This document shows positions 8,482-60,075 of a DNA stretch of 64,000 bases, piece after piece. The DNA lies in NCBI RefSeq assembly GCF_004010195.1, contig NC_057735.1, forward strand, positions 43,699,698 through 43,763,697, read 5' to 3'. Position 1 is the stretch's first letter, and the number at the start of each line of letters is the position of its first letter. The notes under the pieces are model-generated. The model made no database searches. It was not told the origin of the DNA and saw only the letters and a list, made by a program, of their open reading frames with translations. This DNA comes from Chiloscyllium plagiosum (taxonomy: Eukaryota). The translations under genes were made by a program, and so were the position numbers.

Positions 8482-9775
8482 GGTGTGGGTGTTGGACTGA
8501 GGTGGTCAAAGTTGAAAATCACATGACACCAGGTTAGAGTCCAACAGGTTTATTTGAGAGTACAAGCTTTCAGAGCGCTGCTCCTTCATCAGGGAGCTAG
8601 TGGGACGGGGCACATAGGACACAGAGTTTATAAGTAAAAGAACAAAGTGTCATACAATTGATGCGATGTATTAGACAAACCTAGATGGCTTTAAGTCTTT
8701 AATCACTTAAAATGGGATGCAGGTTTCACCTGACTAATATGTAAATTCCAGAACTTCTTTCAAGTCACTGCCACAAAATAACATAAGATTTTATCAGTGG
8801 ATTTAAAAAGGTGACATCTCAGCTCAGACAATGCATTATAGGTGTGTTTAGAGTCAGTTTATGTCCCAACTTGGAGTCAGACTGGTTTTATTTCCAAAGT
8901 AGGAAGTTATAAAATGTCACATGGACTGACTGCCTACAAATTGTGTGTTTTTTGAACAAATACAAATCTGTAAATGCACATTCACCCCATAGACTTATAT
9001 GTGTGTGTGTGAGTGAGGGAGCGAGGGAGAGGGAATGTGTGTGTGTGTGAGTGAGGGAGCGAGGGAGAGGGAATGTGTGTGTGTGTGTGTGAGTGAGGGA
9101 GCGAGGGAGAGGGAATATGTGTGTGTGTGAGTGAGGGAGCGAGGGAGAGGGAATGTGTGTGTGTGTGAGTGAGGGAGCGAGGGAGAGGGAATGTGTGTGT
9201 GTGTGAGTGAGGGAGCGAGGGAGAGGGAATGTGTGTGTGTGTGNNNNNNNNNNNNNNNNNNNNNNNNNNNNNNNNNNNNNNNNNNNNNNNNNNNNNNNNN
9301 NNNNNNNNNNNNNNNNNNNNNNNNNNNNNNNNNNNNNNNNNNNNNNNNNNNNNNNNNNNNNNNNNNNNNNNNNNNNNNNNNNNNNNNNNNNNGAGAGTGT
9401 GTGTGTCTCTTCAAGTGAGTGTGAGTGTGTGTGTGTGTGCATGAGAGAGCGTGCGTATGAGGGTCTGTGGGAGTGTGTGAGCATGTTTGTGGGTGAGAAT
9501 ATGTGTGTGTGTGTGTGTAAATAGTGTGGTGGGGTCACTTTGTAGTGTGACATGAAACCAAGGTCCCAGTTGAGGCCATGCTTATGGGTACCAAAACTTG
9601 GCTATCAGCCTCTGCTTGGCGACTGTGCGTTGTTCTGTATCCCAAAGTCCGCCTTGGAAGACATTTACCTGAAGATCCAAGGCTGATGTCCTTGACCACT
9701 GAAGTGCTCCCCCAGTGGGAGGGAACCTCACTGTTTGGAGATTGTTGCACAATATCCATTCATCTGTTGTTGTGG
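8482..9775 (-). mobile_element. 5'-truncated Penelope-like element (GIY-YIG C-terminus, 3' UTR with satellite, family B terminal repeat)
   Basis: Minus frames give LGEHFSGQGH, DLQVNVFQGGLWDTEQRTVAKQRLIAKF and GLNWDLGFMSHYK*. The terminal repeat at 8482-8600 has a hammerhead core. Confidence 0.75.
8997..9520. repeat. Compound minisatellite [(GT)n GAGTGAGGGAGCGAGGGAGAGGGAAT]n spanning an assembly gap (9244-9392)
   Basis: At least 6 units of ~38-42 bp are visible before the N-run. Confidence 0.95.
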
Positions 9776-10204
9776 CATCAGACTTGAAACATTTAATCCA
9801 CATCATACTCAAAATGTTAACTCTTCTTGTCTCTCTCTGCCAGATCTGCTGCGTTTCTCCAGTATTTTCTGCATTTCTTTTAGATTTCCAGCATCCGCAG
9901 TACTTTGCTTTAATCAAAATGGCCAGGCTGCTTTTGCATTTGACCCAGGATGAGGGTCAGGCAGAGCAAAAAAAAAATCAATCTTCCCACATCTCACACT
10001 TCATTAACTCCACTGAAATACATGGGCAATTTTCAAGTGAGCAGTCAAAGGTACCACTGAAACAAATTGGAGATTCATGAATAAACATGACATGCAATGT
10101 TATCTTACTGACAGACATTCAAGTGTCAGGGGCAGAAGTCACACTTAGGAACATAAGACATACGCTCTAGGAACAGACAAGACGTGCAGGCCCTTGGTTT
10201 CACA

Positions 10205-10310
10205 GAAAAGTGGCATCTCTGACAGTGCAGCACTCCTTCAGTACTGCATGGTGTGTCAGCCTGGATTATGTGCTCAACACTCTACCACTAGTGGGTCTTG
10301 AGCCCATGAT
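10205..10310 (-). mobile_element. DeuSINE (SacSINE1-like) 5' fragment
   Basis: Reverse complement ttgagcacataatccaggctgacac...cagtactgaaggagtgctgcactgtcagagatgcc. Confidence 0.6.
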
Positions 10311-10502
10311 TGTCCGTGTCACACTCATTTGGTAATAGAGAGTCCATAATCATGAAGGTTATCTCTGAGGTGAAATGTGAGGTTGCAGTTCTTTGAGCTT
10401 TGCTTTAATTTTAGGGTGATTCAGTTGAGGTTTTACCTTTCCATCCATCAATTGTTGGGGATTTGGTACCGATCCAGAGAAAACCTTTTAAGGAAAGCCA
10501 CC

Positions 10503-10805
10503 TGGCATGGTAGCTCAGTGGTTAGCACTGCTGCCTCACACTGCCAGGGTCTTGGGTTTGATTCCAGCCTTGGTTGACTCTCTGTCTGTGTAGAGCTTGT
10601 ACATTCTTCCCCTCTCTGTCCTCCAGGTGGTCTGGTTTCCCTCCACAGTCCAAAGATGTGCAGGTTAGGTGGATTGGCCATGGGAAATTGCCAAGAGTGT
10701 TGAGGGATGTGTAGGCTAGGTGGATTAGGCATGGGAGATGCAGGATTACAGGGATGGGGCGGGTCTGGGTGGGATGCTCTTCGATGTGGACTGAATGGTC
10801 TGCAA
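10503..10805 (+). mobile_element. HE1-type V-SINE
   Basis: ggcatggtagctcagtggttagcactgctgcctcac head and V domain. Confidence 0.9.
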
Positions 10806-11218
10806 CAAGCAACCCCCAGAGGGTGTGCAGCATCATCAAGTGAAAAATACTTGAGCAAGATGCAACCATCGACTGTGCCTCCTTCTTCATCTAACAAGTG
10901 ATTTCAGGAATTGCCTACAGAAGTGTAATTACTTGTTTAGCTTCTGACTTACTTAGAAGTTCTAGAATTGTCACAGAGTCATTGTCTTCTTCGTGATGTC
11001 CAACATCAGAAAGTAAATCTTCCTGATGGTACCTTTTCTGATGCTGTATTAGTGCAATTACGTATTTTACCTTATGTAAAGATTTATATTGAGCTTTAAT
11101 AGCCATTCTCCCAATCATTGCTGCTGTACTGGACAGTTTCCCAACCATGTTACAGATCTTTGTTATGACTCCCACTGGCTTCTCCATGTTTCCTGAAAAG
11201 GATTCTGTATTAGATCAG

Positions 11219-11432
11219 AGCTAAAAATCACACAACACCAGGTTATAGTCCAACAGGTTTAATTGGAAGCACACTAGCTTTCGGAGCATCGCTCCTACAT
11301 CAGATGGTAGTGAAGGAGCGTCGCTCCAAAAGCTACTGTGCTTCCGATTAAACCTGTTGGACTATAACCTGGTGTTGTGTGATTTTTAACTTTGTACACC
11401 CCAGTCCAACACCGGCATCTCCAAATCATGAC
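11219..11432. mobile_element. Family B Penelope terminal-repeat palindrome with 12-bp TSD
   Basis: Inverted arms (aaaaatcacacaacaccaggttatagtcc / ggactataacctggtgttgtgtgattttt). gtattagatcag occurs at 11207-11218 and 11433-11444. Confidence 0.85.
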
Positions 11433-13460: not shown

Positions 13461-13720
13461 GTGATGAACATCATGAAGTTTACAAATAAGTGTCAGCCAT
13501 TTGTTGGTCCATTTCGCAGAACAATGACTTGACCAATAAGAGTCAACCTGACGGGATTAAAATGTAATCTAAACCTGGCTGTTTCCTGTCAATCATCATT
13601 AATTGGTGCATTCCCCACACCAACACCTCAGCCAATCGGGCTTCACCTGTTAGCTAATTAGCACTCTCCTCTCATGTGTCATAAATATTGGTTTTCCCTT
13701 TTAATTGTTATTCCTACAAA

Positions 13721-13756
13721 TTGTCCTGATGAATGTAAGATGAAAAGTTTTGACAA
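13721..13756 (+). ncRNA. Degenerate minimal type I hammerhead motif
   Basis: TTGTC-CTGATGA-atgtaagat-GAAA-agtt-TT-GACAA, with a 5-bp stem I. Confidence 0.5.
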
Positions 13757-13829
13757 AAATGTGTTTTGTAAAGATATACTCAAATATGAAGGTTATTGCA
13801 TTACTGTGGTAGTTTGAGCTTTTCTTTTT

Positions 13830-17316: not shown

Positions 17317-17792
17317 TGCAAGGTTTGTGAAGTTTTGTAGCTCAGGTTGAGGTTTAGGGTGTAGGTTTGGTCACTGAGCTGTAGGTTTGATATCCAGATG
17401 TTCCATTACCTGGCTAGGTAACATCAGTGGCGACCTCCAAGTGAAGCGAAGCTGTTGTCTCCTGCTTTCTATTTATATCTTTCTCCTGGATGGGGTTCCT
17501 GGGTCTATCCTGGGACAGGCTAAGCAAAGACATGCCAGAGAATTCCTAGAGGCCTGGCACTCCAACCACAACGCCATAAACAAACACATAGATCTAGATA
17601 CCATCTATCAACCCCTCAGAAAACAAACAGGAAATGACATCATCACAAACCCCAGGAACCCCATCCAGGAGAAAGATACAAATAGAAAGCAGGAGACAAC
17701 AACTTCGCTTCACTTGGAGGTCGCCATTGATGATGTTACCTAGCCAGGTCTGGATATCAAACCCACAGCTCAGCGAGCAAACCTACACTCTA
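17317..17792. mobile_element. Penelope-like insertion (family D): inverted terminal repeats plus GIY-YIG C-terminal fragment, 11-bp TSD
   Basis: ORF ILGQAKQRHAREFLEAWHSNHNAINKHIDLDTIYQPL. atcctagtaaa occurs at 17306-17316 and 17793-17803. Confidence 0.85.
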
Positions 17793-24357: not shown

Positions 24358-25160
24358 TGGCAAATACAATATAATGTGGATAAATGAGAGGTTATCCTCT
24401 TTGGTTTTGAAAACAGAAAGACAGATTATTATCTGAATGGTGCCAGTTTAAGAAAAGGTGAGGTGCAATGAGACCTGTGTGTCTTGGTGGAACAGTCACT
24501 GAAGGTTGGCACGCAGGTGCAGCAGGTGGTGAGGAAAGCTAATGGCATGCTGGCCTTCATAGTGAGGGGATTTGAGTATCAGAGTAAGGATGTCTTGCTG
24601 CAGTTATGCAGTACAGGGTCAAGAGTGTGGTGCTGGAAAAGCACAGCAGGTCAGGCAGCATCCGAGGAGCTGGAAAATTGACACTTCGGGCAAAAGTCTT
24701 ACATCATTCCTGATGAAGGCCTTTTGCCTGAAGCATTGATTTTCTTGCTCCTTGGATGCTGCCGGACTTGCTGTGCTTTTCCAGCAACACACTCTTGAAT
24801 CTAATGTCCAGCATCTGCAGTACCCGCTTTCACGCAGTTGTACAGGGCTTTGGTGAGGTCATACTTTTGAGTATTGTGTGCAGTTTTGGTCTCCTAGTCT
24901 GAGGAAGGATATTCTTGCTCCTGAGGGAGCCCAGCGAAGGTTCACCAGACTGATTCCCGGGATGGCAGGACTGACATATGAAGAAAGGCTGGATCGACAG
25001 GGCTTGTACTCACTGGAATTTAGAAGAATGAGGGGGACATGGCATAGCAACATATAAAATCCTGATGGGACTGTACAGGCCAGATACAGGAGGAATGTTC
25101 CCGACGTTGGGGAAGTCTGGAACTGGGGTCAAGGTCTGAGAATAAGGGGTAAGCCACTCA
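24357..25160 (+). mobile_element. CR1 LINE fragment with nested family A palindrome (~24617-24833)
   Basis: QVQQVVRKANGMLAFIVRGFEY. Nested inverted arms tgctggaaaagcacagcagg / tgctgtgcttttccagca. Confidence 0.85.
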
Positions 25161-25559: not shown

Positions 25560-26340
25560 GTCATAGAGTAAGAGAAATCTACAGCACAGAAAAAGGCCAT
25601 TTGGCCCACCATATCCATGCTGGTCAAAAACAACCACCTAGCCATTCTAATCACATTTTCCAGCTCTTGGCCTATAGCCTAGATTGCCTTGGAATTGCCT
25701 TCCCATTCCTGATGAAGAGCTTATTCTCAAAACGTCAACTCTCCTGCTCCTTGGATGCTGCCTGACAGGCTGTGTTTTTCCAGCACCACACTTTGTGACA
25801 TTGCAAGGGCGCATCTAAATGTTTAAATGTTTCTGCCCCTACCACCCTTGCAGGCAGAGTGCTTTCCGCATTCCCACCACACTCTGTGTGAAAAAAGTTT
25901 GTCTTTACCTCCTGTCTAAACCTTCCCCCCCTTCCCTTAAATCTATGCCTCTAGTCATTGACCCCTCCACCAAGAGTTTCTCACTGCCTACTCTATCTAT
26001 GTTCCTCATAATTTTATACACCTGAATCATTTCCCCTCTCAGGCTATTTAAGGAAAACACCCCAATCTGTCCAATCTCCCTTCCTAACTGAAACTCTGCA
26101 GCCCAGGCAACATCCTGGTAAATCTGCCCTGCACCCTCTCCCATGCAATCACATCCCTCCTATAATGTGGATTCCAGACAATACAGTAGCTGTGGTGTAA
26201 CCAACGTTTTATACAGTTCTACTATAACATCCCTGCTCTTAAACTCAAAGCCTTTGCTAACAAAGGCAAGTAACCCAAATGCCTTTTTGACCACTTCATC
26301 CACCTTCCTGATACCTTATTGGACCCACGTGCTTCTCTAA
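25560..26340 (-). mobile_element. CR1 LINE 3' fragment with nested family A terminal repeat (~25703-25800)
   Basis: LRGEMIQVYKIMRNIDRV. Nested cctgatgaagagcttattctcaaaacgtc. Confidence 0.8.
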
Positions 26341-26499
26341 CCCTGGACCACTACTGCCCACAGAAGATAGTCTCTGTCCCTAGTATTGTTAGAACAGCAC
26401 ATTCACAATACTTACCTTAGTACATGATTTGGAGATGCCAGTGTTGGACTGGGGTGTACAAATTTAAAAATCACACAACACCAAGTGTGATTGGAAGCA

Positions 26500-26534
26500 C
26501 ACTAGCTTTCGGAGCATCGCTCCTTCATCAGGTG
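26500..26534 (-). ncRNA. Minimal type I hammerhead ribozyme (family B), intact core
   Basis: CAC-CUGAUGA-A-GGAGC-GAU-GCUCC-GAAA-GC-UA-GUG. Confidence 0.8.
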
Positions 26535-27018
26535 ATTGTGGAGGGCTCAATCCTAACACACAGAATTTATAGCAAAAATTTACAGTGTAATGTAACTGAA
26601 ATTATACATTGAGAAATTGATTGTTAAGTCTTTCATCTATTTGAATAGCGTATAGTTTCACTTCTTTCATGTGTAAATCACAAAACCTTTTTTTAAAAAT
26701 TGCATTCTCAGGTTAACTGTTAATAATGGGTGATAGCTAGACAATATGTTGAATGTGTTAGCCCCCTGTGTTCTCTGTCTGACAGAGGGGGCTAACACCT
26801 TCAACATATTGTCTAGCTATCACCCATTGTTAACAGTTAACCTGAGAATGCAATTTTTAAAAAAAGGTTTTGTGATTTACACATGAAAGAAGTGAAACTA
26901 TACGCTATTCAAATAGATGAAAGACTTAACAATCAATTTCTCAATGTATAATTTCAGTTACATCACACTGTAAATTTTTGCTATAAATTCTGCGTGTTAG
27001 GATTGAGCCGTCCACTAC

Positions 27019-41749: not shown

Positions 41750-41920
41750 TCAGTAAAGGCGCTGAGGTTTGCCCATGCTGCTCTTAATGTAGAGGGCACG
41801 CACATTCTGCCAATTCTTTTTCAGTAGTGAAACCAGGAAGTTGATTGCTAGATGAATGTTGTAGACAAGCTCCTCTTCAGTCATTTTAATGTGGCCCACT
41901 GCAACTGCCAAACACAGCAC
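41750..41920 (-). CDS. RPL10A: 60S ribosomal protein L10a (uL1), exon 6 (171 nt incl. TGA)
   Basis: [56 protein letters not shown]; acceptor ttttcttcccctcag. Confidence 0.98.
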
Positions 41921-42499
41921 CTGAGGGGAAGAAAGACGGATTAAACTACATTTCAGATGGCTCAACTCCTAAACAACCATACCAACTCTGAAGGAGTTTT
42001 TGTATCAAAGTCCAGATGAACAGCACTTCAACAGGAACAATCTAACTATTATGTCCCCTGCAGTCTACATCAGTAGATCATTCATATCTACTGCAGTCTG
42101 CATAACCCTCAGGCAACTCAAACCATTTTCTTCAACACCCTGTCATTGGCAAAGCAACGTGGTAACATTGCCAAACTCTGCAATAGTTCAGGGATATCCT
42201 TCCTGTCTCTGTTGAAGGCACTGGCTCAATTTAGCCTACTGTTGCATGATCATGTACTATGTTTCTAGTCAGAGGCAAACTAAATCTCATCTGAAAATCA
42301 CAAATTCCAACAATGTAAACAGCACCCCAGCATCAGCTGATTCAGATCCACGGAAATATCACCAATATTGTTACTGGGAATGCCAACACATTAACAGCAG
42401 TTCAGATTTTCAATGGCATGCAATATATAAATCACTCATTGCTGTCAGCTGAATCCCCTCTAGAAAGTTATACCACACCCTGGTCAGGCTGAGCTCCTA

Positions 42500-42781
<282 letters not shown>

Positions 42782-43149
42782 TTAAGCATTTATCCAATTT
42801 TCAAAGGTCACCTCTGAATCTATATCCATCTGGCTCAAGGCAGCAAGGTCACTAACACATACTGACCCTGCCTATGGCACATCCCAAGAACAAACAAAAC
42901 TGACTCCATAACAATTTGTCCCATCTCAAATTCTAACCAAAGGATTTCTCTTCTTGTCTTCTGGCTCACTGCTCTGCTTTAACCCCATTTCCATTGGAAG
43001 CACATTTCTCTTAATGTAAATGAAAACAAATCTCTTAGCCTGAACTGCTTTTGCAATCCAACTTCTACAGCCCATCATGACAATAATTCCTCCACCTGGC
43101 CCATTTGCAAATATTTTCAGCACCCTAGCTAAACTCTTTCCAATTTAAA

Positions 43150-43880
43150 GGCTCGTTTGATCATCAATGCTGAAAGTTGAATGTGACTATAGGAGGAATG
43201 GTTAGGTGGTTTGCATATGACACCAAAATATATGGTGTAGCAGATAAAGATCATATCAGCACAACAGGATCTTGATCAGATGCAACAACAGGCAAAGCAA
43301 TGGCATAGTTTAATTTGGATAAATGGGAGGGTCGTATTTTGCTAAGGCAAACTAAGGCAGGATTCAGAACCAAGGATGCAGGTGCATAGTTTCTTGAAAG
43401 TAGAGTCACAGGTAGACAGGGAGTGAATGCAGCATTTAACTGCTGTATAGGACAGTGGTGAGACCACTTTAATACCGTATATAATTCTGGTTACTCGCCC
43501 ATGGGAAGAATGTTGTGAAACTTAACAGTGTAGAAAAGATTTACAAGGATATTGCCAGGACTGCAGAGTTTGAAGCTTGGATAGGGTAAATAGACAAGGT
43601 CTTGTCCCAGGGGTGGGGCAGTCCAGAACTAGACTAATTGGACATAGGTTTAGGCTAAGAGAGGAAGATTTAAAAAGGGACAACCCTTTCTAGAGGGTGG
43701 TGAGTTTATAGAATGAGCTGCCAGAGGAAGTGGTGGAGGCTGGTACAATTACAGCATTTAAAAGGCATCTGGATGGGTATATGGAAAGGAAGGGGTAGTA
43801 GGACTAGATTACGTTAGCATATCTGGTCAGCATGGATGAGATGGACCAAAGGGTCTGTTTCCTTACTGCACATCTGACTC
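43150..43880 (+). mobile_element. Deleted CR1 3' fragment in RPL10A intron 4
   Basis: gaatgagctgccagaggaagtggtggaggctggtacaattac and 3' UTR. Confidence 0.8.
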
Positions 43881-44365
43881 GAACCACACGTGGTGTGAAC
43901 AGACTTGTCATTCAGCAAAGCAACAGAAATATTTTCAAAAACAAATGAATAAACCGAACCAAGTCCCAACACAGACAATTTGTCTCGTTTCATTTATCAG
44001 AGGTAGACGAGAATGAGCAAATCTGTACAACCTTTAATGGAGGCTTAACGGAGCTGAATAGGAGTAAATTCTACTGGAAATGGGCATGAATGTAACTTGA
44101 AAATAAATCCCATTTAGCCATCTGCAAGCTGAACAGTTCCTGGTCTATGCTGAATAGTCAATTTCAAATAAGTTAACGAATTTGCATTCAAGAAATTGAG
44201 ATGAATGCGCTGTTTTGTAAACAGATACACAGCCACTGAACTGCAAATGCTTCTGATCTGAAAGTCCTATTTAAGGCCTCTAACCTTTCGTAATTCCACG
44301 TTCAGGTGAATACCATGCATGATATTCGAACCAGTCCTAAGTGTCATTCTTAAAATTACTTCGGG

Positions 44366-45703
44366 CACATAGACAATAGGTGCAGGAGTAGGCCATTCTG
44401 CCCTTCGGGCCTGCACCACCATTCATTATGATCATGGCTGATCATCCTCAATCAGTATCCTGTTCCTGCCTTATCTCCATAACCCTTGATTCCACTATCC
44501 TTGAGAGCTCTATCCAACTCTTTCTTAAATGAATCCAGAGACTGGGCCTCCACTGCCTTCTGGGGCAGAGCATTCCACACAGCCACCACTCTCTGGGTGA
44601 AGAAGTTTCTCCTGNNNNNNNNNNNNNNNNNNNNNNNNNNNNNNNNNNNNNNNNNNNNNNNNNNNNNNNNNNNNNNNNNNNNNNNNNNNNNNNNNNNNTG
44701 GTCTCACCAGGGCCCTGTACAGTTGCAGAAGAACCTCTTTGCTTCTATACTCAATCCCTCTTGTTATGAAGGTCAGCATGCTATTAGCCTTCTTCACTAC
44801 CTGCTGTACCCTGCATGCTTGCCTTCATTGACTGGTGTACAAGAACATCCAGATCTCTTTGTACTGCCCCTTTATCTAAATTGATTCCATTTAGGTAGTA
44901 ATCTGCCTTCCTGTTCTTGCCACCAAAGTGGATAACCATACATTTATCCACATTAAACTGCATCTGCCATGCATCTGACCACTCACCTAACTTGTCCAGG
45001 TCACCCTGTAATCTCCTACCATCCTCATCACATTTCACCCTGCCACCCAGCTTAGTATCATCAGCAAATTTGCTAATGTTATTGCTAATACCATCTTCTA
45101 TATCATTAACATATATTATGAAAAGCTGTGGTCCCAGTACTGATCCCTGCGGTACCCCACTGGTCACTGTCTGCCATTCCAAAATGGAACTGTTTATCAC
45201 AACTCTTTGTTTCCTATCAGCTAACCCACTTTTAATCCAAATTAGTACTTTGCCCCCAATACCATGTTCCCTAATTTTGCTCACTAACCTCCTATGTGGG
45301 ACTTTATCAAAGGCTTGCAAGTCCAGATACACTACATCCACTGGATCTCCCTCATCCAGCTTCAGTTACATCGTCAAAAAAATTCAAGATTAGTCAAGCA
45401 TAATTTCCCCTTCATAAATCCATGCTGACTCTTGACCTATCCTGCTACTGCTATCCAGATATGTCCTAATTTCATCCTTTATAATTGACTCCAGCATCGT
45501 TCCCACCACTGAAGTCAGACTAACTGGTCTATAATTTCCTGCTTTCTCTCTCGCTCCTTTCTTACAAAGTGGCACAACATTAGCCACCCTCCAATCCGCA
45601 GGAACTGATCCTGAATCTATCGAACTCTGGAAAATAATCACCAATGCATCCACGAATTCTAGAGCCACCTTCTTCAGTACCCTGGGATGTAGACCATCAG
45701 GCA
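44366..45703 (-). mobile_element. CR1 RT/3' fragment in RPL10A intron 4 (contains gap 44615-44698)
   Basis: PDGLHPRVLK, NYRPVSLTS, GVPQGSVLGP, KFADDTK. Confidence 0.9.
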
Positions 45704-46056
45704 CATACTGATTACAATATCCTAGCAAGCCTAGAATGCCACAAGTGGATAACTGGGTCTCTTGTTCAGACTGATTTTCTTACTGATCATACAACCCTAT
45801 AAACCAAGATCACAAGCTACTGAATTGCACTCCTAAACATTCAATACCTTTAATTAACATACAATATGTAACTGTGCATGAAAATCAACACAATTAAAAT
45901 CTTATCCAATGATTCAAATATAGTGCTCAGAATCTAAACTGCAGCAGTTCTCTCCTGGCTCCCACCAAATAAATGCAACAGAAATGCAGATGTCAAACAT
46001 TTCCAAACTGAACTCCAGAATGCTCAGGTTCCAATTACAATTAGCCTCCAACTCAC

Positions 46057-46205
46057 CCAGCTTCTTGACCATTTTCTTATTTTTGTTCAGCTTCTTCAGA
46101 GCTTCAATGTCCATGTGAGGGAGGTCAGCAGCCTTCGCTTCATCACAGTGCTGCTGGTCACCAAGCACACAGATGGAGAACTTCGGCCGAGGGGCACTCT
46201 TTAAC
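46057..46205 (-). CDS. RPL10A: RPL10A exon 4 (149 nt)
   Basis: (R)[49 protein letters not shown]; bounded by tag / gtgagt. Confidence 0.98.
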
Positions 46206-46341
46206 CTAAACCAGCAGGACATCAGAGTCAAACTTCAGGATGTGGTTAAAACCCAGATCATTCAAAGGAAGCTTTTGTGAATGCCTTACCCTAGCTGGCT
46301 TCTCATGTGTCTTATCCACCAGCAACTTACTCCTTACAAAT

Positions 46342-46380
46342 GGTCGGCAGGATTGGCAATACTGCCTCCCCTAGCCTCCC
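46342..46380 (-). promoter_or_regulatory. Candidate L10ARE-like uL1-binding RNA element in intron 3
   Basis: GGGAGGCUAGGGGAGGCAGUAUUGCCAAUCCUGCCGACC folds as a hairpin with two GGGAGGC/GCC internal-loop modules. It lies just upstream of GTAAG donors. Confidence 0.6.
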
Positions 46381-46558
46381 CTCATGTTTTAAGACCCAGG
46401 GTACGGGTCCGTTCCAAACCCCTTGTGGAGTGGAACTACCCATGTTTTTCAGTAGCACAAGGTGAACAAAGAACATTTACTTGTTTGCAAATGGACAAAG
46501 CCAATCACTATTCACCAACTTGTGCACTGAGAACTGGGTTAGCAATAAGAAGCCGAAC

Positions 46559-46639
46559 CTGACAGTGCCAGAGAAACGCTTGTCCTTTTGAGGGTCATAG
46601 TTCTTCAGGCTGATCTGTAGCTCCACAGTCTCCAGGAAC
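46559..46639 (-). CDS. RPL10A: RPL10A exon 3 (81 nt)
   Basis: (K)[26 protein letters not shown](R); bounded by tag / gttcgg (weak donor). Confidence 0.98.
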
Positions 46640-47931
46640 CTAAACAGAAGATATTCCCATCAGCTATGCAGACAAAGAAAGATCAACTCACTATACAAAA
46701 CTTTTCAGCTGCCCAACAGTCAGATGTAGGAAAATTGGCCATTGTGGCACTATACATCTCAATGCCCTGATCCTACATGTCCTTTGATGTCTTGCACTTA
46801 ATGGCAAAGCTTTCACAGCCTTCTAGCTTAAAGAATTCCAAGATTCACTGCCCTGAGTAAAGTGGTTTGTCTTCATCTCAGTCCTGAATGGCTTATTTGT
46901 TTTACTGAGACACTGGCCCTCTGGACCTAGACTCCAAAGTCATGCATCTACATCTATGCTACATTAATGCCAAAAGACTACAACATCCACTTTAGGAAGC
47001 AGAGAGGGCCTCAACTCTCTCGCCTTGGGTGGTGACATATGGGGTTAGCCACAAGCAGCTTCAAAACAAGCAAGATCCGCAGCCGGACCAGCGTGTGACA
47101 AGTTTTTGTGTAAAAGAATAGACAGTGCTGGTAGAGAGTTTGACCAATGGTTAAAGCCAAGCCCAAACCCACCCTCAACACTCATCTAGTATCAGCCCAC
47201 CCAGGCAAGGATCACCGGAGAAGCAAGGAATTGGGTTGATTTCTCCTTCCTGGAAGAATGATGCTGAACTAAACAGTACAATCCTGCTCTAGCCTTTGCA
47301 GCTATGCTCCACTGGGGTTTACACAGTACTTATGGCACGCGGTAGACATGGTCATACAAACGCTACATGACTGCCAGGACTATGCCTGGACAAAACCCTT
47401 CTACAGACTGCACATCACTACTAAAGGAACTAAACTATATCACATGCAATTTCAAACATGGTAAAAGCAATAAATATTAAAACTGTCTATTAGGAGTTTA
47501 AAAAATAAATTGAAATTGTGTTCCAGGATACACAGCTCCACAAAGATTTGCCATGATTGAGGAAATTCCTCATCACAGCCCCATATTGTATGCCCTATAT
47601 TCTGAGACTGCCCCCTGGCTCTAGATCCCACAGCAAGGGGAACCATCCTTTCTACGCCTACATCTTTCAATTTTATAAGCTTCCAGGAAATCACCTCCCT
47701 TTCTCCTAAATGGGAGAGGTTAGAGGCCTGACCTCCTCTATCTCTCAAAAGGAACCCACATCTGAAGTCTGGTTAACCCCTGCTACACTCAGAGGTATAC
47801 CCTTCCATTGGCAAGTAGAAGAGAATTGCACGAATGGGTGCAGGTGCAATTTAAACAGCATTCTGTACAATTGAAACAATTTATTTGCTTCTGTATTCAA
47901 ATCCTTGTACGTGACAAAGCAGGAGACTTAC

Positions 47932-48006
47932 TTGCGAGGTTTCTGTTGGGATCCCTGAAGGACCTCTCGGACAGCTTCGTACAGGGTATCACGTGAGACT
48001 TTGCTG
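47932..48006 (-). CDS. RPL10A: RPL10A exon 2 (75 nt; 72 nt from 48003 if the CAG of the AAGCAG tandem acceptor is used)
   Basis: (S)SKVSRDTLYEAVREVLQGSQQKPR(K); donor gtaagt. Confidence 0.97.
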
Positions 48007-48129
48007 CTTCATCACAAAGAAAACATCACAACTTAAGTTCTGAAACAGCAATTCATCTAATTCTTAAACCATACCCTTGCATAACTGAACTCAATAGAAA
48101 TGATTGAAGGTGGGCTTTAGGCTAAGGAA

Positions 48130-48345
48130 AAAGTGAGGACTGCAGATGCTGGAGATCAGAGGCCTATCACCCCCACCTTGACCTCCCTCCACCTATCGCA
48201 ATTCCAATGCCCCTCCTCCCTACCTTTTATCTTAGCCTGCTGGACAGACTTTCCTCATTCCTGAAGGGCTTATGCCCAAAACGTCGATTCTCCTGTTCCT
48301 TGGATGCTGCCTGACCTGCTGCGCTTTTCCAGCAACACATTTTCA
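48130..48345. mobile_element. Family A Penelope terminal-repeat insertion with short inverted tail and 16-bp TSD
   Basis: gctttaggctaaggaa occurs at 48114-48129 and 48346-48361. Confidence 0.85.
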
Positions 48346-49300
48346 GCTTTAGGCTAAGGAAGTACCATTACGCATTCAAAACATGAATGGCCTATGAAGA
48401 GAATCAGTACCATACCAGCACTTCATTTTTTTTCAGATCTCCACCATTCACAAGACAAGAAGCAAGCTAATCAGCCTGAGTGTGCCATGTTACTTCATGA
48501 GATCTGCTAATCCGATTACCTTTAATTTAATTTCCCCATCATCCTTGAACCCTCTCTCATTGCAGTATGTCAGACTTCAAAATACTTAACCACCGAGGCT
48601 CCACAACTCACTGCTGAGGGATTTCACAGACTTACCAACTTCATAAAAAAGGAATTCCTAACCTTCATCCTAGTGAGCAATCCTTACTCAGATTACATCC
48701 TCTGGTTCCAGACTCTTCTAAAAGGAGAAACAAACTACCCAGATCTGCACTGTCAAGTACCCACCACCCTGCATAACAAGAATCTTCTTTCAGTAAGATT
48801 GCCTTTACATCCAGTAAATACAGGTCCAACCTAGTCAACCTCAAGTCAAACCCTCTATGCCATGGAATCAACCTAGTGAATCTTCACTGTTAATATGCCT
48901 TTCCCTCAATTAGGGGAAAATTGAAAACTGCATTGGGGTTGGCATTTAGGTTGACCTAAACGTTTTGGTCTCAGAGAATTTCAGATGATGGGGAGACCAG
49001 GTCAGAGATGCACAGCAAAGAGACTGCCATGCAGACCAGGCAGCCTAAATTAATATAGCCCATTTGCCAGCATTTAGCCCATACCCCAGATCTTTCCTAT
49101 TCATGTACCCATCCTGGTGCCTTTTAAATGTTATGGTACAAGCCTCCACCACTTCCCCTGAAAGCTCAGTCCATACATGCACCACCCTCTGCATGAAGAG
49201 GTTGCCCCTTGAGTCACTTAAATCTTTCACCTCTCAGCTTAAACCTATACCCTCGGTTGCTCGACTTCCCCAACCCAGGGAAGTCATCTTGAGTATGTGC

Positions 49301-49391
49301 TGATAATGTGTTGCTGGAAAAGCGCAGCAGGTCAGGCAGCATTCAAGATGCAGGAGAATCGACATTTCAGGCATGAGCCCTTCTTCAGGAA
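49301..49391 (-). mobile_element. Family A solo terminal repeat with hammerhead core (49359-49390), nested in a CR1 3' fragment (~49000-49450)
   Basis: Minus strand CUGAAGA-A-GGGC-UCAU-GCCU-GAAA-UG-UC. Flanks read agtatgtgc / agtatgcgc. Confidence 0.75.
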
Positions 49392-49949
49392 AGTATGCGC
49401 CCAGCCCATGCCCCTCCATGATTTTATAAACCTCTACAGTCAGCCCTCAGCCTTGGACAAAGTTAAAAATCTCACAAACCAGGTTCTGGTCCATAACCTG
49501 GTGCGCAGTGATTTTTAAACACTGTCCACCCCAAGCCCAACACCTGCACCTCCACGTCTCAGCCTTGGAGAGTGTGAGAAGTGCAGATGCTGTAAAGTCA
49601 GAGTCAATAAAGCATGGAACTGAAAAAGCACAGCAGGTCAAGCAGCTGAAAAGGGGGAAGTCAGCGTTTCAGACCAGAACCTTTCATCCAGTGCTGATTA
49701 AAAGGTGCCGACCTCAAACGTTGACTCCCCTGATGCTGCCTGACCAGTGACTCTGTGACCTGCTGAGCTCTGTCCAGCTCCACACTTACATCGCCACCCC
49801 TCAGCCTCCAGGGAGAATATCCCCACAGAGTGAGGAGACAAAACAAATGGAAGATGAATCGGGTGTACAGGAGTTATGACAGGGCTAGACCTCAGGGATA
49901 TGGACACTGTGTTGTGAACTGGAGGCTCTGGGCTATGGGGAGCCCCCCT

Positions 49950-50260
49950 GGGCCCTCAGTCACAGGAGCTGCCGGGGCCTGGAGACAAAACGGCACGGGA
50001 TTCCGCGGCAGAGACGCCATCGTTCCTAAATTCCGCAGTAACTTGTCGGTAAGGTCAGTGTGGGCCCCTCCGATGGCAGCCCGGAGCCGGTGGTGCGCTC
50101 TAACGGGGAGGATGGCGGTGGATTGTCCGAGCAGCCTGCGGCCTAGCCTGGCCTCACCTCATCCTGACGGTGACTCCGGTAAAAGAGGCCGCTCGCCCGG
50201 AACTGACCGCTTTTATAACCGGACCGGCTTCCGCCTCTCGCGAGGGTATTCAGCGATCAT
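49950..50260 (-). promoter_or_regulatory. RPL10A: RPL10A CpG-island promoter: TATAAAA (50217-50211), TCT/5'TOP initiator (50188-50181), ETS, CGCG and YY1-like sites
   Basis: TATA lies ~31 bp upstream of CCTCTTTT. CCGGAA 50197-50202; CTCGCGAG 50237-50244; GATGGCG 50111-50117. This is the only strongly CpG-rich stretch in the window. Confidence 0.9.
50158..50162 (-). CDS. RPL10A: RPL10A exon 1 coding part (ATG AG); exon starts ~50186
   Basis: Minus strand ...ctcttttaccggagtcaccgtcagg ATGAG|gtgagg. The six exons sum to 654 nt (217 codons + stop). Confidence 0.93.
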
Positions 50261-50681
50261 CATTTCTCTTTATAATTTAAATTAAAACGACGGGTTTACA
50301 TTTTATTTCTCGTGTTAAACTGAAGACAGCATTGAATTATGAAAATTTCTTTCCAGCTGTAAATTGTTGCTGTGCAACAGGAATTCCCTTCCCCTGGCAA
50401 GAGTCCCCTCCTCGGAAGGTCCGGGGGTTTTAAACCCCCACAGAATAAAGCAGCTTTTCCAAATATTAAGTTAACATACAACTGGTTTAAATTTTATTCA
50501 CATTTTCACACATAATTGAAACGGATTTCCAATTTACCTCACAGCTGCTAAGATTACACCTTTGCTTTTTATGTATTTCATGTTTACAATCCTTTTAAAA
50601 TGGGGATATCAGAATTTTAATACTGCTTCTGAAAAAGTTATATATTTGCCTTTATCTCATCATTAAAGCTTTTAAGAAACT

Positions 50682-51729: not shown

Positions 51730-53270
51730 TTGGAAGGCAAGGTGAAGGCAGAGCGGTGGACGTTGCCTATATGGACTTCAGCAAGCAAGACATTTGTAAA
51801 AGGTCTGTATGGTAGACTGATTAGTAAGGTTAGATCACAAGAAATCCAAGGAGAGCTGGCCATTTGGATACAAAGTTGACTCAAAGTCGGACACAGACGG
51901 TGATGGTGGAGGATTGCTTTTCGGAATGGAGGCCTGTGACCATCTATATGCCACAGGGTTCAGTGCTGTGTCCACTGCTTTTTATCATTTATATAAATGA
52001 TTTGGATGTGAATATAGGAGGTATGGTTAGTAAGTTTGCAAAATTAGTAATATAGTGGACAGTGAGAAAAGGTTATCTCAGAGTACAACAGGGCCTTGAT
52101 CGAAGGAGTGGCAGATGGAGTTTAGATAAATGTGAGGTATTGCATTTTGGAAAGTCAAATCAGGGCAATACTTATACACCTAATGGTAGAGTCCTGGGGA
52201 GTGTGGCTGAACAAACAGACTTTGGGGTACAGGTTCATAGTTCCTTGAAAGCAGAGTCGTAGGTTGACAAAGTGGTGAAGAAGGTGTTTCATACAGTTGC
52301 CTTTATTAGCCAGTACATTGGGTAAAGCAGTTGGTATCACATGTGTGGTGCTGGAAAAGCATAGCAGGTCAGGCAGCATCCGAGGAGCAGGAGAATCGAC
52401 ATTTCAGGTAAACGCCCTTCGTCTGGAATGAGGCTATGAGCTGAGGAGCTGCTGAGATAAATGGGAGGAGGGGTGGGGCTGGGGGGAAGGTAGCTGAGAG
52501 TGGGATGGGTAGATGGAGGTGGGGATAATGGTGATAGATCAAAGAGGAGGGTGGAGTGGATAGATGGGAAGGAAGATGGACAGGTAGTACACGTCATGAG
52601 GGCAGTGCCGAGTTGGAAGTTTGGAAGTGGGATAAGGTTTAGGGAGGGGAAATGAGGAAACTGGTGAAATCCACATTGATGCCGTGGGTTGGAGCATCCC
52701 GAGGCCAAAGATGAGGCATTCTTCCTCCAGATGTTGGGTGGTTAGTGAGTGGCGACAGAGGAGGCCCAGGACCTGCATGTCCTTGGTGGAGTGGGAAGGG
52801 AAACTGAAGTGTTTGGCCATGGGGCAGTGGGGTTTGTTGGTGCGGGTGTCCTGGACATGTTCTCTGAAGCTCTCTGTAAGTAGGCGTCCTGTCTCCCCAA
52901 CATAAGGGATACCACATTGGGAGCAACAGATACAGTAAATGATATGTGTGGAAGTGCAGGTAAAATTCTGGTGGATGTGGAATATATACACTTGGGTTAG
53001 GCTAGTTCAAAACCAGAGGGAATAGGTTTAAACTGAGAGGGAAAAGATATAAAAGGGACCTAAGAGGCAACATTTTCATGCAGAGGGTGGTGCATATATA
53101 AAACGAGCTGCCAGAGGAAGTGGTGGAGACTGATACAATTACGGCATTCAAAAGGGATCTAGATGGGTATGTGAATAGGAAAGACTTTGAGGGATAATGG
53201 CCAATGCTGGCAAGTGGGACTAGATTTATGTCGGATATCTGGTCAGCATGGATAAGTTGGACTGAAGTGC
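51730..53270 (+). mobile_element. CR1 RT/3' fragment interrupted by a Penelope element
   Basis: AVDVAYMDFSK, PQGSVLCPLLFIIYINDLD. The 3' part resumes at ~53020. Confidence 0.85.
52341..52991 (-). mobile_element. 5'-truncated Penelope-like element: GIY-YIG endonuclease plus family A terminal repeat
   Basis: FTCTSTHIIYCICCSQCGIPYVGETGRLLTESFREH...MAKHF (GIY-YIG with CCxxC insert). Confidence 0.9.
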
Positions 53271-55835: not shown

Positions 55836-56264
55836 AGGATATTAATAATGGAGCAGGAAGTACCAGATTGTATAGGCATTGGGAAGTAAATGAAAAGATA
55901 GTGATATGTAAAGATTGTACGCTGATCAGATACAATTTGTTCACAGTACCATGTGGATTATTATGGATGGATGCTGCTGTGGATATCACATCAGTTTACA
56001 TGGGCAAGGGATATATGTGGTTGCTGTGAGGAAATGGTGTGGTCAGATTGAGAGACTAACGGAGTGTCGGACAACTTCACTTGTCGATCAGGAAAATCGA
56101 TGTGTCTTTGAACAGTATACTGCAAAATGCACATCGTGTGGATTGTAGGGAGCACAGGGAAGTACATCTGCAAACTGCATGGTGAACAGAAATGGCTTGT
56201 AAGAAAAAACAATGCAAGTATGCAGTTAATGAATAGAACCTGGTTGACACAATGCCTCCACTAT

Positions 56265-56299
56265 CACCTGATGAAGGAGCATCGCTCCGAAAGCTAGTG
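56265..56299 (+). ncRNA. Minimal hammerhead (family B), intact, in a solo terminal repeat 56255-56388
   Basis: CAC-CUGAUGA-A-GGAGC-AUC-GCUCC-GAAA-GC-UA-GUG. Confidence 0.8.
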
Positions 56300-57822
56300 T
56301 GCTTCCAATTAAACCTGTTGGACTATAACCTGGTGTTGTGTGATTTTTAACTTTGTACACCCCAGTCCAACACCGGCATCTCCAAATCGGGACTAGATTG
56401 GGTTGGGATATCTGGTCGGCATGGACAGGTTGGACCGAAGGGTCTGTTTCCATGCTGTACATCTCTATGACTCTAATGTTCCATGACCTCTTCCCAATTC
56501 TAAACAAACGTGGCAGAAGTTAGAGCAAGACTTCAAAACCAACAATACAATAGTGATCATCTATCTTTAGTGATGTTGGATACAAGCTAGGATTTAGGGG
56601 CAGAATTAGGCCATTCAGCCCCTCGAGACTGCTCTGCCATTCAATAAGATTTTGGATGTCGTCTCAATCCTGTTTTCTTATCTGCACCTGCACGGTATTT
56701 CAGTGCTCTGTACAGGTGCAAGAAAACATTCCCACTTTAATATTGATTTTTTTCTTGCAATAAGTATCAACTTTCATTTGCCTTCCTAATAACCTACTGC
56801 CCCTGCAAACTAACTTTTTATGATTCACGTACCAGGACATCCAAATCCCTTTGTGCCTTCACTTTCTGCAATCTATCCCGATTTAAATAATAGTCTGCTT
56901 TTCTATTCTTCCTGCCAAAGTGGACAGGATCACATTTATCCTTGTGATACTCCACTTGCCAATGTCTTTGCCAACTCACTGTCTCTATTCCTGTGCAGAT
57001 ACATTGCCTTTTCTTGATAACCTACCTTTCCTACCCAGTGCGGTGTCATTGGCAAATTTAGTTGCCATACATTTAGCTCCTGCATCCATGTCAATTATGT
57101 AGATTGTAAATGGGAAACGCCCTAGTACTGATCCCCACAACTAGATACAGTTTGTGGAGGTGCCAGTGTTGGACTGGGGTGGACAAAGTTAAAAATCACA
57201 TGACACCAGGTTATAGTCCAACAGGTTTATTTGAAAGTACAAGCTTTCAGAGCTAGTGGGGCAGGTACATATGACGCAGAGTTTATAAATAAAACATCAC
57301 AGTGTCATACAACTGACGCGATATATTAGACAAACCTAAAGGGCTGTTAAATCTTTCCACTTAATGGTATGGTCCACTCCCTAGGTCCTTACTATTAAGT
57401 GCATAAATCATGCCCTGATGTGCCTTTCCAAAATACAGCGCCTCATGTTTATCTAAATTAAACTCCATCTGCCACTCCTCAGCCCATTGGCCCATCTGAT
57501 CAAGATCCTGTTGTAATCTGAGTTAACCTTCTTTGCTGTCCACTACATCTCCAATTTGTGTTCTTTCATTCCTGAGCCTGGGCTTGGGATGGGCTGGGAG
57601 TGGGAGGTTGTTACTTAAACTACCAAATCAAACAGAGATCACACTTGGACACATAATTTTTGAGGCTTGTCCTCAACGTATACTAAGCTTACTCTCAAAT
57701 CTTTTTGCAGAATCAATAAATTTAAACACAAATTTCAGATTGTCATTTAATCCAGTACCTGCTGTAAATTTTCAGTCTGGGCTGGTACCCCTTTAATTAC
57801 ATCCTTTGATTGTTAGTTCCAC

Positions 57823-58372
57823 TGTGATTGGAATGAGGACCAGGTAGATCTCATTAACTATGAGGTCCCTGATTGGGGTTGTTAACCAGAGCTGACCAGG
57901 GAGCCCTGGCTGACAGATATCATTAGATTAGATTAGATTACTTACAGTGTGGAAACAGGCCCTTCAGCCCAACAAGTCCACACCGACCCGCCGAAGCGCA
58001 ACCCACCCATACCCCTACATTTACCCCTTTAACCTAACACTATGGGCAATTTAGCATGGCCAATTCACCTGACCCGCACATCTTTTGGACTGTGGGAGGA
58101 AACCGGAGCACCCGGAGGAAACCCACGCAGACACGGGGAGAGTGTGCAAACTCCACACAGTCAGTCGCCTGAGTCGGGAATTGAACCGGGGTCTCTGGCG
58201 CTGTGAGGCAGCAGTGCTAACCACTGTGCCACCGTGCCGCCCACACACAGGATATTCAGAGTCTCCTCATTCTAGGGATTGGATCTGAGCTGGCTGGTCC
58301 ATGCAATGTAGACCTGTCAATAAAGGTGTGACTTGGGTGACAGGATACTGGCCTCTGTGCAGTTATTTTACA
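57823..58372 (+). mobile_element. Probable short solo LTR with a nested young HE1 SINE (57923-58242, minus)
   Basis: TG...CA ends with AATAAA ~50 bp from the end; no TSD seen. The HE1 is full length with a (TTAGA)n tail. Confidence 0.5.
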
Positions 58373-59359
58373 GGGCATAATCAATTTGCAAATTATTTGT
58401 AGAAGGAGATTACAGGGTCAAAGTATTCTGTGACTCCACCCAGCTATGACTTTGACCTGATGTTATCACACAATATACCAGAAAACAAAAATCATTTTAC
58501 ATTGTTGCAGAGATTGGCTTTTAAAGCAATCCAATTCACCTTATGACTATATTTAGTACCACACATGTTGCCAGTGGTTCATGGGGATTATCTAAAGAAA
58601 GTTCCCCTGAGCCTTACTCGCTAAGTACACCACTTGTTGTGTCAACCAGCTAGGCAAAGCAGAAAATGCAGCTCTGATCCCCAAGCTCTGCTGAGTTCAC
58701 TGGTCTCAACAGGACAACCAGTAAATCTGACTGCACCTGGGCTAATGAGGAGGAATACTCCCTACATGTGAGTATTATGCAGCAACCGGAGAATGGTAAA
58801 AGACTATCCGTACAGACAGAGGCGATGTGCTTAATTTGCTGTTCATAGTTAGAGATCCCAGAAACAGTGGAGAAACTACCCCTGCCAATTGTGAATATGA
58901 TTTGTAAAATTATGACAAATGTTAATATGTCCACATTAAGTCTTTTTAATTATCTGTTGCATTCAAATACTGGTTACCTCGGGACTCAATTCCCATGCTC
59001 TCCTGGCCCTCCTCCTGTTTTGTGCCCTCTGTAAATTTGACTTCATCCATAATTCTGCTGCCTGTATTCCCACACAGACTGAGTTCACTCATCACCTGAT
59101 GCTCCCTGGCATTCAGGGCACCATGAGCTGTGGCCAGGAAATCAGCTTGCCCGGTGCCATGTACATAGTCACCTGGACATCCAACATTGCACCAGAGAAC
59201 CTGCTCTCTCTGAACCTCTTACAGCTATTTTATCACTGGTCAAAGTTAACTTTCTGCCTACAGATAGAGTTTAGCCCTTTAGGAGGTGATTGCTTTCACA
59301 TGGTATCAATCAAGCCTGAATTCGTGCTCCCACAAATTGCCAGGTAGACCTGTAGGAAT

Positions 59360-59705
59360 ATTGGGCAGTTCAGCGGTTAACACTGCTACCTCAGTGCCAG
59401 GTGGCTCAATGATTAGCATTGCTGCCTCATGGCACCAGGGACCTGGGTTTGATTCCAGACTGTTTGTGAGGAGGTTTTCACATTCTCCCAGTGTCTGCAC
59501 GGGTTTCCTCCCAGTCCAAAGCTGTGCAGGTTGGATGGATTGGCCATGGCAAATGGCCCCATAGTTTCCAGGGATGTGCAAGCTAGGTAGTCTAGCCATG
59601 GGAAATGGGGGTCACAGGGATAGCATCTGGATGGGATGCTCTTCAGAGAGTCAGTGAGAACTTGATGGGTCAAATAGCTTCTTTCTGTAGGAATTCTATG
59701 ATTCG
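59360..59705 (+). mobile_element. HE1-type V-SINE (duplicated head)
   Basis: Two successive head-like motifs followed by V domain and tail. Confidence 0.8.
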
Positions 59706-59857
59706 CATATCATATGACACCTATCATGTTTAGCAGATAGAATAAGATTCACATGGATCTGTCTCATAGATGATATCTTCTGTGACTGCGACAAGGGAAA
59801 ACTAAAACTATTAAAGCATTTACTGCACCATCCCGCTCCTCTGATGTCTCTCTATTA

Positions 59858-60075
59858 TCAAGAGTGTGGTGCTGGAAAAACACAGCAGGTCCGGCAGCAT
59901 CCAAGGAGCAGGAGAGTCAACGTTTCGGGCAAAAGCCCTTCATCAGGGATTGCTGATGAAGGGCTTTTGCCTGAAATGTTGACTCTCCTGCTCCTCAGAT
60001 GCTGCCTGACCTGCTGTGTTTTTCCAGCACCACTCTCTCAACTTTAATCTCCAGGAGGTGCAGTCCTCACTTTCC
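59858..60075. mobile_element. Family A palindrome with back-to-back hammerhead cores
   Basis: Minus 59917-59947 CUGAUGA-A-GGGC-UUUU-GCCC-GAAA-CG-UU; plus 59953-59982 CUGAUGA-A-GGGC-UUUU-GCCU-GAAA-UG-UU. Confidence 0.85.

Follow-up and report, generated by a model that had tools for sequence, protein, structure and literature searches.

Abundant minimal hammerhead motifs in the terminal repeats of Penelope-like elements of Chiloscyllium plagiosum, and what their copy ends suggest about insertion

The 64,000-nucleotide stretch of Chiloscyllium plagiosum DNA considered here (assembly GCF_004010195.1, contig NC_057735.1, positions 43,699,698 to 43,763,697), referred to throughout as the window, is rich in remains of Penelope-like elements (PLEs) that carry minimal hammerhead ribozyme motifs in their pseudo-long terminal repeats (pseudo-LTRs). 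By alignment to 53 natural reference copies taken from other loci, 31 copies anchored by their tail were found in the window: 17 of A type (including the related families F and G), 10 of family B and four of family C; a single one of these has no part of a hammerhead. Beyond the 31 there are two arms of family D, one copy of family E at 13726 and a decayed copy near 38800. An earlier, sequence-only reading had put the number of motifs at about 20, which proves to have been, if anything, low. A pattern for the core alone matches 16 sites, 14 in repeats and two by chance (50320+ and 46099-, the latter inside a ribosomal-protein exon); all hammerhead core bases are present in the 14 repeat-derived sites, and some 20 further sites are decayed or cut short. 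When stem II and stem I are required as well as the core, six perfect minimal hammerheads (27022+, 33576+, 56268+, 38868-, 37834- and 26531-) and three with one mismatch are found, against none in each of 10 Markov controls; a looser descriptor gives nine in the window and none in the reversed window. It should be noted that distances along a copy are counted from C3, the first base of the CUGANGA box, as 0. A box resembling the core, with a stem I of 3 bp, also lies at 36691+; it is the sole one of its type in the window and may be a decayed further family or chance.

The motif is of the minimal hammerhead kind described in 2014, and no new RNA class is involved. It has the CUGANGA, GAAA and UH elements of that kind, with helices I and II and no helix III. 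Stem I is just 2 bp long in 25 of 53 intact motifs sampled, and 49 of the 53 have an unpaired (bulged) base between positions 9 and 10.1. Positions 15.2–16.2 read CG in 30, GC in six, CA in nine, TG in three and something else in five; the CA and TG forms are presumably products of CpG decay of the palindrome. Families A, B, C and D have the stems and the 4-nt palindromes that the sequence-only reading had assigned to them, and D is decayed as described, both copies having deletions in the core. The proposal that stems differ between families while the catalytic core is kept also stands, since the 11 core bases, the bulged base and the palindrome accompany unrelated stems; this combination argues for selection on active master elements. 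A single motif reported at 13721 does exist, with C3 at 13726 (13721 being the start of stem I), and it belongs to an older repeat family with a longer, decayed helix-III region. This family E (13590–13790) gave 40 scored matches out of 1306 candidates at 73–83% identity, the query itself excluded, and its helix-III region resembles a palindrome of 6 nt rather than 4. Monomer folding of five motifs was no better than that of shuffled sequences (z -1.2 to 0.2), so that folding energy neither supports nor refutes them.

A search of the window with Rfam returned no hammerhead match at E values up to 1, as would be expected for motifs that have no helix III. Five microRNA matches were returned in their place, all under the gathering score and four of them on the palindrome at 59.9 kb. 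This palindrome (59904–59995) scores 31–51 bits against four unrelated microRNA models, below their cut-offs; units like it could be mis-called microRNA precursors or feed double-stranded RNA pathways.

Table 1. PLE-derived copies and associated coding remnants in the window (a full stop in the strand column marks units that are not assigned to one strand).
Feature	Position	Strand	Details
Family A head-to-head unit, tail only, without hammerhead	5060–5194		apparent 11-bp target duplication
Family B 3' end	8509–8846	-	hammerhead C3 8592 with intact core and weak stem I
Broken end of family B open reading frame (ORF; endonuclease C-terminus)	9520–9700	-	a microsatellite and 149 N lie between it and the 8592 copy downstream
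Family B head-to-head unit	11216–11428	.	short arm - (C3 11303, with a change at A9), long arm + truncated at +4; target duplication of 14 bp
Family E old repeat	13590–13790	+	hammerhead C3 13726, 5-bp stem I, decayed stem II
Family D head-to-head unit	17350–17776	.	flanks Poseidon-like endonuclease piece 17486–17638; hammerheads 17427-, 17727+, both with deletions
Family A head-to-head unit	24624–24830	.	short and long arm, both cores damaged
Family A solo copy	25700–25794	+	5' end about -10, G12 lost
Family B head-to-head unit, long arms 96% complementary	26420–27111	.	intact hammerheads 26531-, 27022+; 12-bp target duplication
Decayed family B solo copy	27734–27858	+	begins at hammerhead 5' edge
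Family C head-to-head unit with endonuclease piece 30758–31096 (-)	30660–31319	.	hammerheads 30771- (U4 changed), 31208+ (intact); long+long exception
Family A head-to-head unit	31739–31945	.	31872+ core intact, 31864- damaged
Two family C copies, direct order	32991–33651	+	33127 damaged, 33576 intact; endonuclease ORF end 33239–33592 stops in stem II loop
Family F (A-related) palindrome	37761–37906	.	intact hammerhead 37834-
Family G (A-related) copy	38495–38567	-	5-bp stems I and II, G12 lost
Old family B pair	38807–39114	.	cores intact at 38868-, 39011+
Decayed family A palindrome, internal deletion	41137–41272	.	
Family A copy (+, 48168–48348)	48124–48348	.	short inverted long-end piece at 5' side
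Family A solo copy	49299–49391	-	5' end -3, core intact, CpG-decayed
Old family A-related copy	49574–49688	-	
Family A long copy	52346–53006	-	CxxC-bearing GIY-YIG piece 52539–53006, 3' untranslated region (UTR), hammerhead C3 52425 (U4 changed)
Young family B solo copy	56255–56388	+	intact hammerhead 56268, poly(A) hexamer downstream
Family B copy cut within stem II	57155–57253	-	
Family A head-to-head unit	59865–60073	.	both 5' ends -4, short and long arm, cores intact (59946-, 59953+)

The assignment of these minimal type I hammerheads to PLE terminal repeats is borne out: the motif lies in the pseudo-LTR of an element with reverse transcriptase (RT) and GIY-YIG endonuclease. The further claim that families A to D are each joined to a GIY-YIG fragment holds directly for A, C and D; B is joined to its endonuclease end only across 149 N in the window, and a gap-free join is found at another locus (L115). 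Pfam support for the window pieces is weak (A, E 0.07; C and D, no match). In a homologue of the A piece the GIY-YIG match does clear the cut-off (E 8.3e-5), a C-linked piece at locus L175, which has a C-type end, matches RVT_1 at E 6.5e-4, below the curated cut-off, and the D piece has 63% amino acid identity to the C piece. Family A has a CxxC ahead of its YxGET motif, a Zn-finger-like motif near the endonuclease being a feature of the Neptune clade, and C and D have an ATG at stem II, as has the Anolis element PAc. From such motifs we tentatively class A and B as Neptune-like and C and D as Poseidon-like. At locus L166 the tail runs on from the long end into the ORF's start, and the tail is therefore the beginning of the element body; direct inspection shows sequence shared past the long end there and at L017, L022, L027 and L064, which an automated search of 179 copies had missed. 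In C and D the hammerhead overlaps coding sequence, the stop of the endonuclease ORF falling within loop II and the next frame, which runs through the tail, beginning with an ATG at A9; overlap of this type is seen at 33576+ in the window and at L133, L137, L175 and L053. The motifs of A and B lie at least 400 nt past the end of the ORF and well ahead of its start. The palindromic units had been thought to be separate non-autonomous families. This is contradicted by the finding that long copies and short ones occur side by side in each loop-II subfamily of A; the autonomous families each leave such palindromes as a by-product of their insertion. A reading as miniature inverted-repeat transposable elements was likewise rejected, because the arms are unequal, there is no spacer and the units are continuous with retroelement ORFs.

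The very large genome-wide number of motifs predicted from the window was confirmed by a pattern scan of the 3.556-Gb assembly. Exact patterns match 96,993 times for A, 18,482 times for B and 3,987 times for C, with none in reversed controls, and a general exact core pattern matches 166,352 times against 218 in the control. In a random sample (sixty fixed-position 10-kb stretches from 20 large contigs; 578,743 non-N bases) there are 53 strict motifs, against two in the reversed control, and 164 tail-anchored copies; extrapolation gives about 3 x 10^5 strict motifs and about 10^6 copies in the genome. The window is just modestly denser than the genome, holding nine strict motifs where about 5.8 would be expected from the sample, and its 31 tail-anchored copies are likewise modestly above average.

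The ends of these copies are regular. Each family has two classes of 3' end, about 35 nt apart (near +88 and +124 in A, at +85 and +121 in B, and at +74 and +111 in C), the sequence between which is the Penelope tail. Of 77 head-to-head units, 72 combine a long 3' end with a short one, where 50% would be expected (p 1.3e-16), the exceptions being four short+short units and one long+long; the 77 include units picked by pattern, and in the window and random sample alone the figure is 38 of 42. A target duplication of at least 9 bp, mostly 12–16 bp, flanks 59 of the 77, against 3.7% of 300 mismatched controls, which indicates that such units are single insertions. The two arms share their loop-II type in 18 of 23 A units (0.21 expected by chance). 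Their 5' positions often differ considerably, and between them there may be a spacer, at most 23 nt long. Among solo A and B copies, 15 of 107 have a small inverted piece at the 5' junction (none in the control), and in 12 of the 15 that piece ends in the other 3' class.

There is a similar regularity at the 5' side, where about half of the A and B products stop between -10 and +10. For A the rate of ends per base is 0.093 at -5..0 (47 of the 84 copies that reach it), 0.049 at -10..-6 and 0.024 at +1..+10, falling to 0.007–0.011 further downstream, including the cleavage site (0.011 at +26..+32), and to about 0.003 upstream of -20; for B it is 0.061–0.075 at -10..0 and 0.003 at +26..+32. Neither family has an excess of ends at the cleavage site itself (+28/+29). 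Truncation at that site was thus rejected as an origin of the ends, and the templates appear not to have been cut by the hammerhead, in agreement with uncleaved RNA having been the main insertion substrate in vitro (PMC11167929). A hidden subfamily was rejected as the cause of the pile-up because, of 44 solo copies with ends at -12..+10, 43 have unique flanks. Joints at A -4/-5 are found in DNA contigs, and nested exact counts for one A subfamily over the genome are 40,338, 24,047, 12,134 and 7,596 for starts at 0, -4, -8 and -12. Four C-type ends at -2 come from divergent relatives and were left out of the pile-up count. The modal A end, at -4/-3, is the first base of stem I and lies in the word ATT (-4..-2). 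We take it to be the A of a pyrimidine-flanked, initiator-like word. The Anolis endonuclease cuts by preference at ATT within the pseudo-LTR of its own element (PMC11167929), and promoters of Penelope type lie inside the pseudo-LTR (PMC2377424; PMC8557442).

Evidence on the RNA comes from sequencing runs aligned to L066:8000–9620, where there is a long copy each of A and B. The RNA run is a single-cell poly(A) library, of which about 2% was read; 4,493 reads were placed at 88% likeness and hence stem from many source copies. The RNA of B is polyadenylated and uncleaved: 827 reads have poly(T) loose ends at +57 and 119 at +60, the aligned copy has no A-run at these positions, and reads run through the cleavage site. 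The poly(A) site follows the cleavage site at a distance of about 28 nt and is itself preceded, by about 12 nt, by a hexamer; among 47 B copies this reads AATAAA in 27 and ATTAAA in 14. Upstream of the B motif, depth by first-mate direction is 442 against 28, a strong bias that we read as sense RNA. In family A the strand bias is only mild, and none of the loose ends listed carries poly(A). One A subfamily (for example L003, L011 and L030) has AATAAA in the tail (10 of 127 A copies), and other A copies have no hexamer there. Circular RNA was looked for as backward joints, and none with RNA reads was found among the 15 of 70 joints listed, again in a poly(A) library.

Decay was followed in 222 copies; out of 403 distinct ones, 168 that owed their selection to a pattern or protein search were set aside, as were 13 that lie next to N or at the edge of a locus. 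The complete set of 11 core bases survives in 82 (51 of 152 in A, 21 of 51 in B and 10 of 19 in C). G12, which lies in a CpG, is changed like other CpG sites, both in A (14/97 against 44/226, p 0.34) and in B (10/37 against 23/147, p 0.15). The two arms of 49 unascertained head-to-head units, taken as identical at insertion, were also compared, and no protection of the core was detectable (11/242 core positions against 181/2762 elsewhere, p 0.27; at CpG, 7/38 against 85/306, p 0.25). The 70 pairs of same-family neighbours within 1 kb comprise 51 head-to-head, six tail-to-tail and 13 direct, and there is no hammerhead tandem array in the window. A head-to-head unit has one sense motif per strand, and such pairs cannot dimerise in cis; the unit folds as one hairpin of -165.5 kcal/mol that buries the motif. 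It has been reported that monomers of such motifs did not cleave and that dimers cleaved weakly (PMC4209133), and that an Anolis motif cleaved only with protein (PMC11167929). Given the loss of core bases, the head-to-head order, the hairpin fold and this weak published cleavage, most genomic copies are unlikely to cut. The sequence-only reading had spoken of a ribozyme repertoire located mostly in non-autonomous derivatives of retrozyme-like or palindromic form. With 82 of 222 copies keeping the core, no significant core protection and a buried motif, a working repertoire finds no support here, and nor does a mostly retrozyme-like one, given the lack of a tandem array in the window and the few direct neighbours. 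The hallmark of retrozymes, head-to-tail units each with a complete hammerhead, is limited to isolated two-copy cases. Internally deleted partial tandems do occur at L064:2135–2656, L017, L022 and L027, in the order tail, ORF start, jump to the 3' UTR, hammerhead and tail; all jumps land within about 200 nt of the ORF start, and the four different breakpoints mean that these are not one family. L064 has two intact motifs in direct order, 334 nt apart, and is a candidate dimer in cis.

The explanation that we favour overall, with some reserve, is that these are dimer-type minimal hammerheads of PLE pseudo-LTRs, that most copies are dead, short insertion products, and that these arose by priming at two sites. 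The motif would be kept by selection on active masters, while genomic copies would be mostly short, non-replicating products that decay. RT would begin at one of two internal sites 75–127 nt downstream of the core; the endonuclease would cut both target strands, 10–17 bp apart; extension would begin at the far site for one strand and at the near site for its partner; and the resulting products would join at their 5' ends to give a head-to-head unit with one long and one short arm. In PAc, an Anolis element, there are two internal RT start sites equated with the tail, both strands were extended, and the hammerhead was dispensable for insertion in vitro (PMC11167929). The pile-up in A and B is most simply read as run-off at the 5' end of an uncleaved transcript starting there. 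In B, a unit transcript would have a hammerhead at either end, within a short repeat that finishes at the poly(A) site near +57; two copies of the motif could pair through the 4-nt palindrome and cut, and dimer cleavage, perhaps with circularisation, could supply longer, more-than-unit copies. Cleavage, the transcription start site and two-strand priming are the parts of this scheme that we infer. A fuller version, put forward tentatively as one possibility, is that a Neptune-type PLE has an LTR-like terminal redundancy (start about -4 to -8 and poly(A) at about +57 in B) holding the hammerhead; that one protein dimer primes both strands from the two start sites, near the 5' end of the transcript; that about half of insertions are strong-stop run-offs joined head to head; and that a copy can become longer only through a jump to the 3' repeat or through a circle produced by the hammerhead. 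If this is true, about a million such footprints lie in the genome, enough to read the Penelope cycle, and the place of the hammerhead in it, from sequence.

A number of findings weigh against the favoured explanation or its parts. Outside CpG, mismatch with the references is lower at core positions than in tail columns, in A (22/699 against 256/4417, p 0.003) and in C (2/130 against 35/323, p 0.0005; B, p 0.12), although we judge this test to be confounded, as it mixes subfamily change and alignment bias with later decay. The comparison of arms has low power (4.5% against 6.6%), so that modest core protection could have escaped it. Family C has no pile-up, 15 of 19 copies extending past -20; the 5' ends in general form a zone rather than a point, and the nested counts reach no plateau at -12, 63% being kept from -8 to -12, partly through subfamily variation. 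The 5' pseudo-LTR reaches -22 in L166 and about -50 or more in L064; a transcript with its start at -4 would have been too short a template in such cases. A target duplication flanks just 25 of 100 solo copies (control 3.3%). The RNA run, from its poly(A) library, has no sharp start or end where many molecules begin or stop, though a library of this type could miss a sharp end, and the poly(A) reads could stem from few loci, one locus and many being indistinguishable. Finally, no gap-free full-length element was recovered: every long candidate is split by runs of N, and long open frames among the loci listed, considered as full-length elements, were rejected as being such runs. The pieces of the element (ORF start at L166, RT piece at L175, endonuclease ends) were found separately.

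The main rival accepts the same dead copies and fits most of the same facts, and we regard it as somewhat unlikely. According to it, head-to-head units come from a single priming event followed by snap-back or template switching, with resolution by the endonuclease leaving the tail on one end, and the 5' pile-up comes from an endonuclease cut of a DNA intermediate at ATT (-4..-2 in A) or from stalling of the polymerase. Snap-back likewise predicts long and short arms, a shared subfamily and one target duplication; self-priming has been argued for in rotifer Penelope elements (PMC3846280), and the ATT preferred by the Anolis protein is found at the modal end of A. However, B has no fixed ATT there and still piles up over -10..0, stalling at the ribozyme structure would be expected on its 3' side, where there is no excess, and the unequal 5' positions and spacers of the arms are not needed by a clean snap-back. 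The reading from sequence alone, extended to a very large repertoire of mostly functional ribozymes whose non-autonomous families, retrozyme-like or palindromic, spread through self-cleavage and circular RNA and shape host RNA, appears improbable. It can draw on at least 166,352 intact cores in the genome, on abundant B sense RNA in the poly(A) library, on the lower mismatch of core positions with the references and on a few direct partial tandems with two intact motifs (L064 and L054). Against it stand the small share of direct neighbours, the four tandem breakpoints, the lack of a copy-end excess at the cleavage site, the single-hairpin fold of the palindromes, the free decay of G12 and the published cleavage behaviour of monomers and dimers. 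Lower still in our estimation, and very improbable, is the view that the core is kept for non-catalytic reasons, be it protein coding (in C), promoter function or protein-binding signals. The ATG and open frame directly after the first core box in C and D would suit it, as would hammerhead mutants having no effect on insertion in vitro (PMC11167929). Yet A and B motifs that lie outside coding sequence keep the same 11 bases and the bulge, with swapped palindromes (CG against GC) and unrelated stems.

With regard to the rest of the window, exons of the ribosomal protein L1/L10a family lie at 41800–50300 (-), with a Pfam Ribosomal_L1 match (E 1.2e-4) for 45914–46234; we take the gene to be RPL10A. 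Several A and B copies at 48.1–49.7 kb lie between these exons and a GC-rich stretch at 49.8–50.3 kb and are probably intronic. An abundant short repeat family occurs at 10499, 13122, 33826, 54436, 59401, 60636 and 63185, together with inverse copies. Its 5' part is, we assume, tRNA-like, and the window presumably also holds many RT fragments of long interspersed nuclear element type.

The kind of ribozyme found here is already known, and the value of the system lies in its copy number and in its regular ends as a natural record of insertion. This single vertebrate genome has over 1.6 x 10^5 intact cores and, if extrapolated, about 10^6 copies, which Rfam misses and which are liable to be called as microRNA hairpins. 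Transposition of PLEs and the role of their hammerheads are open questions (PMC8557442, PMC11167929); the long+short pairing, the 5' pile-up at the hammerhead edge and the nearby poly(A) site give sharp predictions that make Penelope transposition testable. In the open-access literature covered, we found nothing on Penelope hammerheads of sharks, on statistics of long+short pairing or on 5' ends at the hammerhead edge, and no figures for how often the tail sits on one end.

The nearest known motifs are those of metazoan PLEs (Cervera and De la Pena 2014, PMC4209133), which have the same core, the bulge between 9 and 10.1, a G10.1-C11.1 pair and a palindromic 15.2–16.2, and which likewise occur as many sequence families per genome, mostly in single truncated copies with some opposite-strand pairs. 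Stem I is shorter here. That report names no cartilaginous fish in the sections covered, and counts about 4,000 motifs in coelacanth and about 9,000 in Xenopus tropicalis with its own descriptor; the ratio to the 166,352 found here by a different pattern is thus a rough one. Animal non-LTR retrozymes (bioRxiv 10.64898/2026.07.22.740005) share a pseudo-LTR origin and type I hammerheads and are reported from one chondrichthyan, but are defined as head-to-tail tandem units, whereas the copies here are mainly solo or head to head. The Anolis Poseidon element PAc (Frangieh et al. 2024, PMC11167929) shares the two start sites, an ORF starting at stem II (as in C and D) and the cutting and extension of both target strands; no strand difference in start site was seen in that work, in contrast to the different sites used by the arms in 72 of our 77 units, and its sections covered do not deal with Neptune-type elements, the distribution of 5' ends or a test of site pairing. 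Penelope, Neptune and rotifer Penelope elements (PMC8557442, PMC3846280, PMC2377424) share 5' truncation, an inverted truncated 5' copy, a tail of 30–40 bp on one end, target duplications, and a promoter and start site inside the pseudo-LTR, the inverted copy with its one-sided tail having been described qualitatively (PMC8557442, PMC3846280). Those structures are known from few copies, whereas in C. plagiosum a 200-bp unit consisting solely of two pseudo-LTR ends dominates and 5' ends cluster at the edge of the hammerhead.

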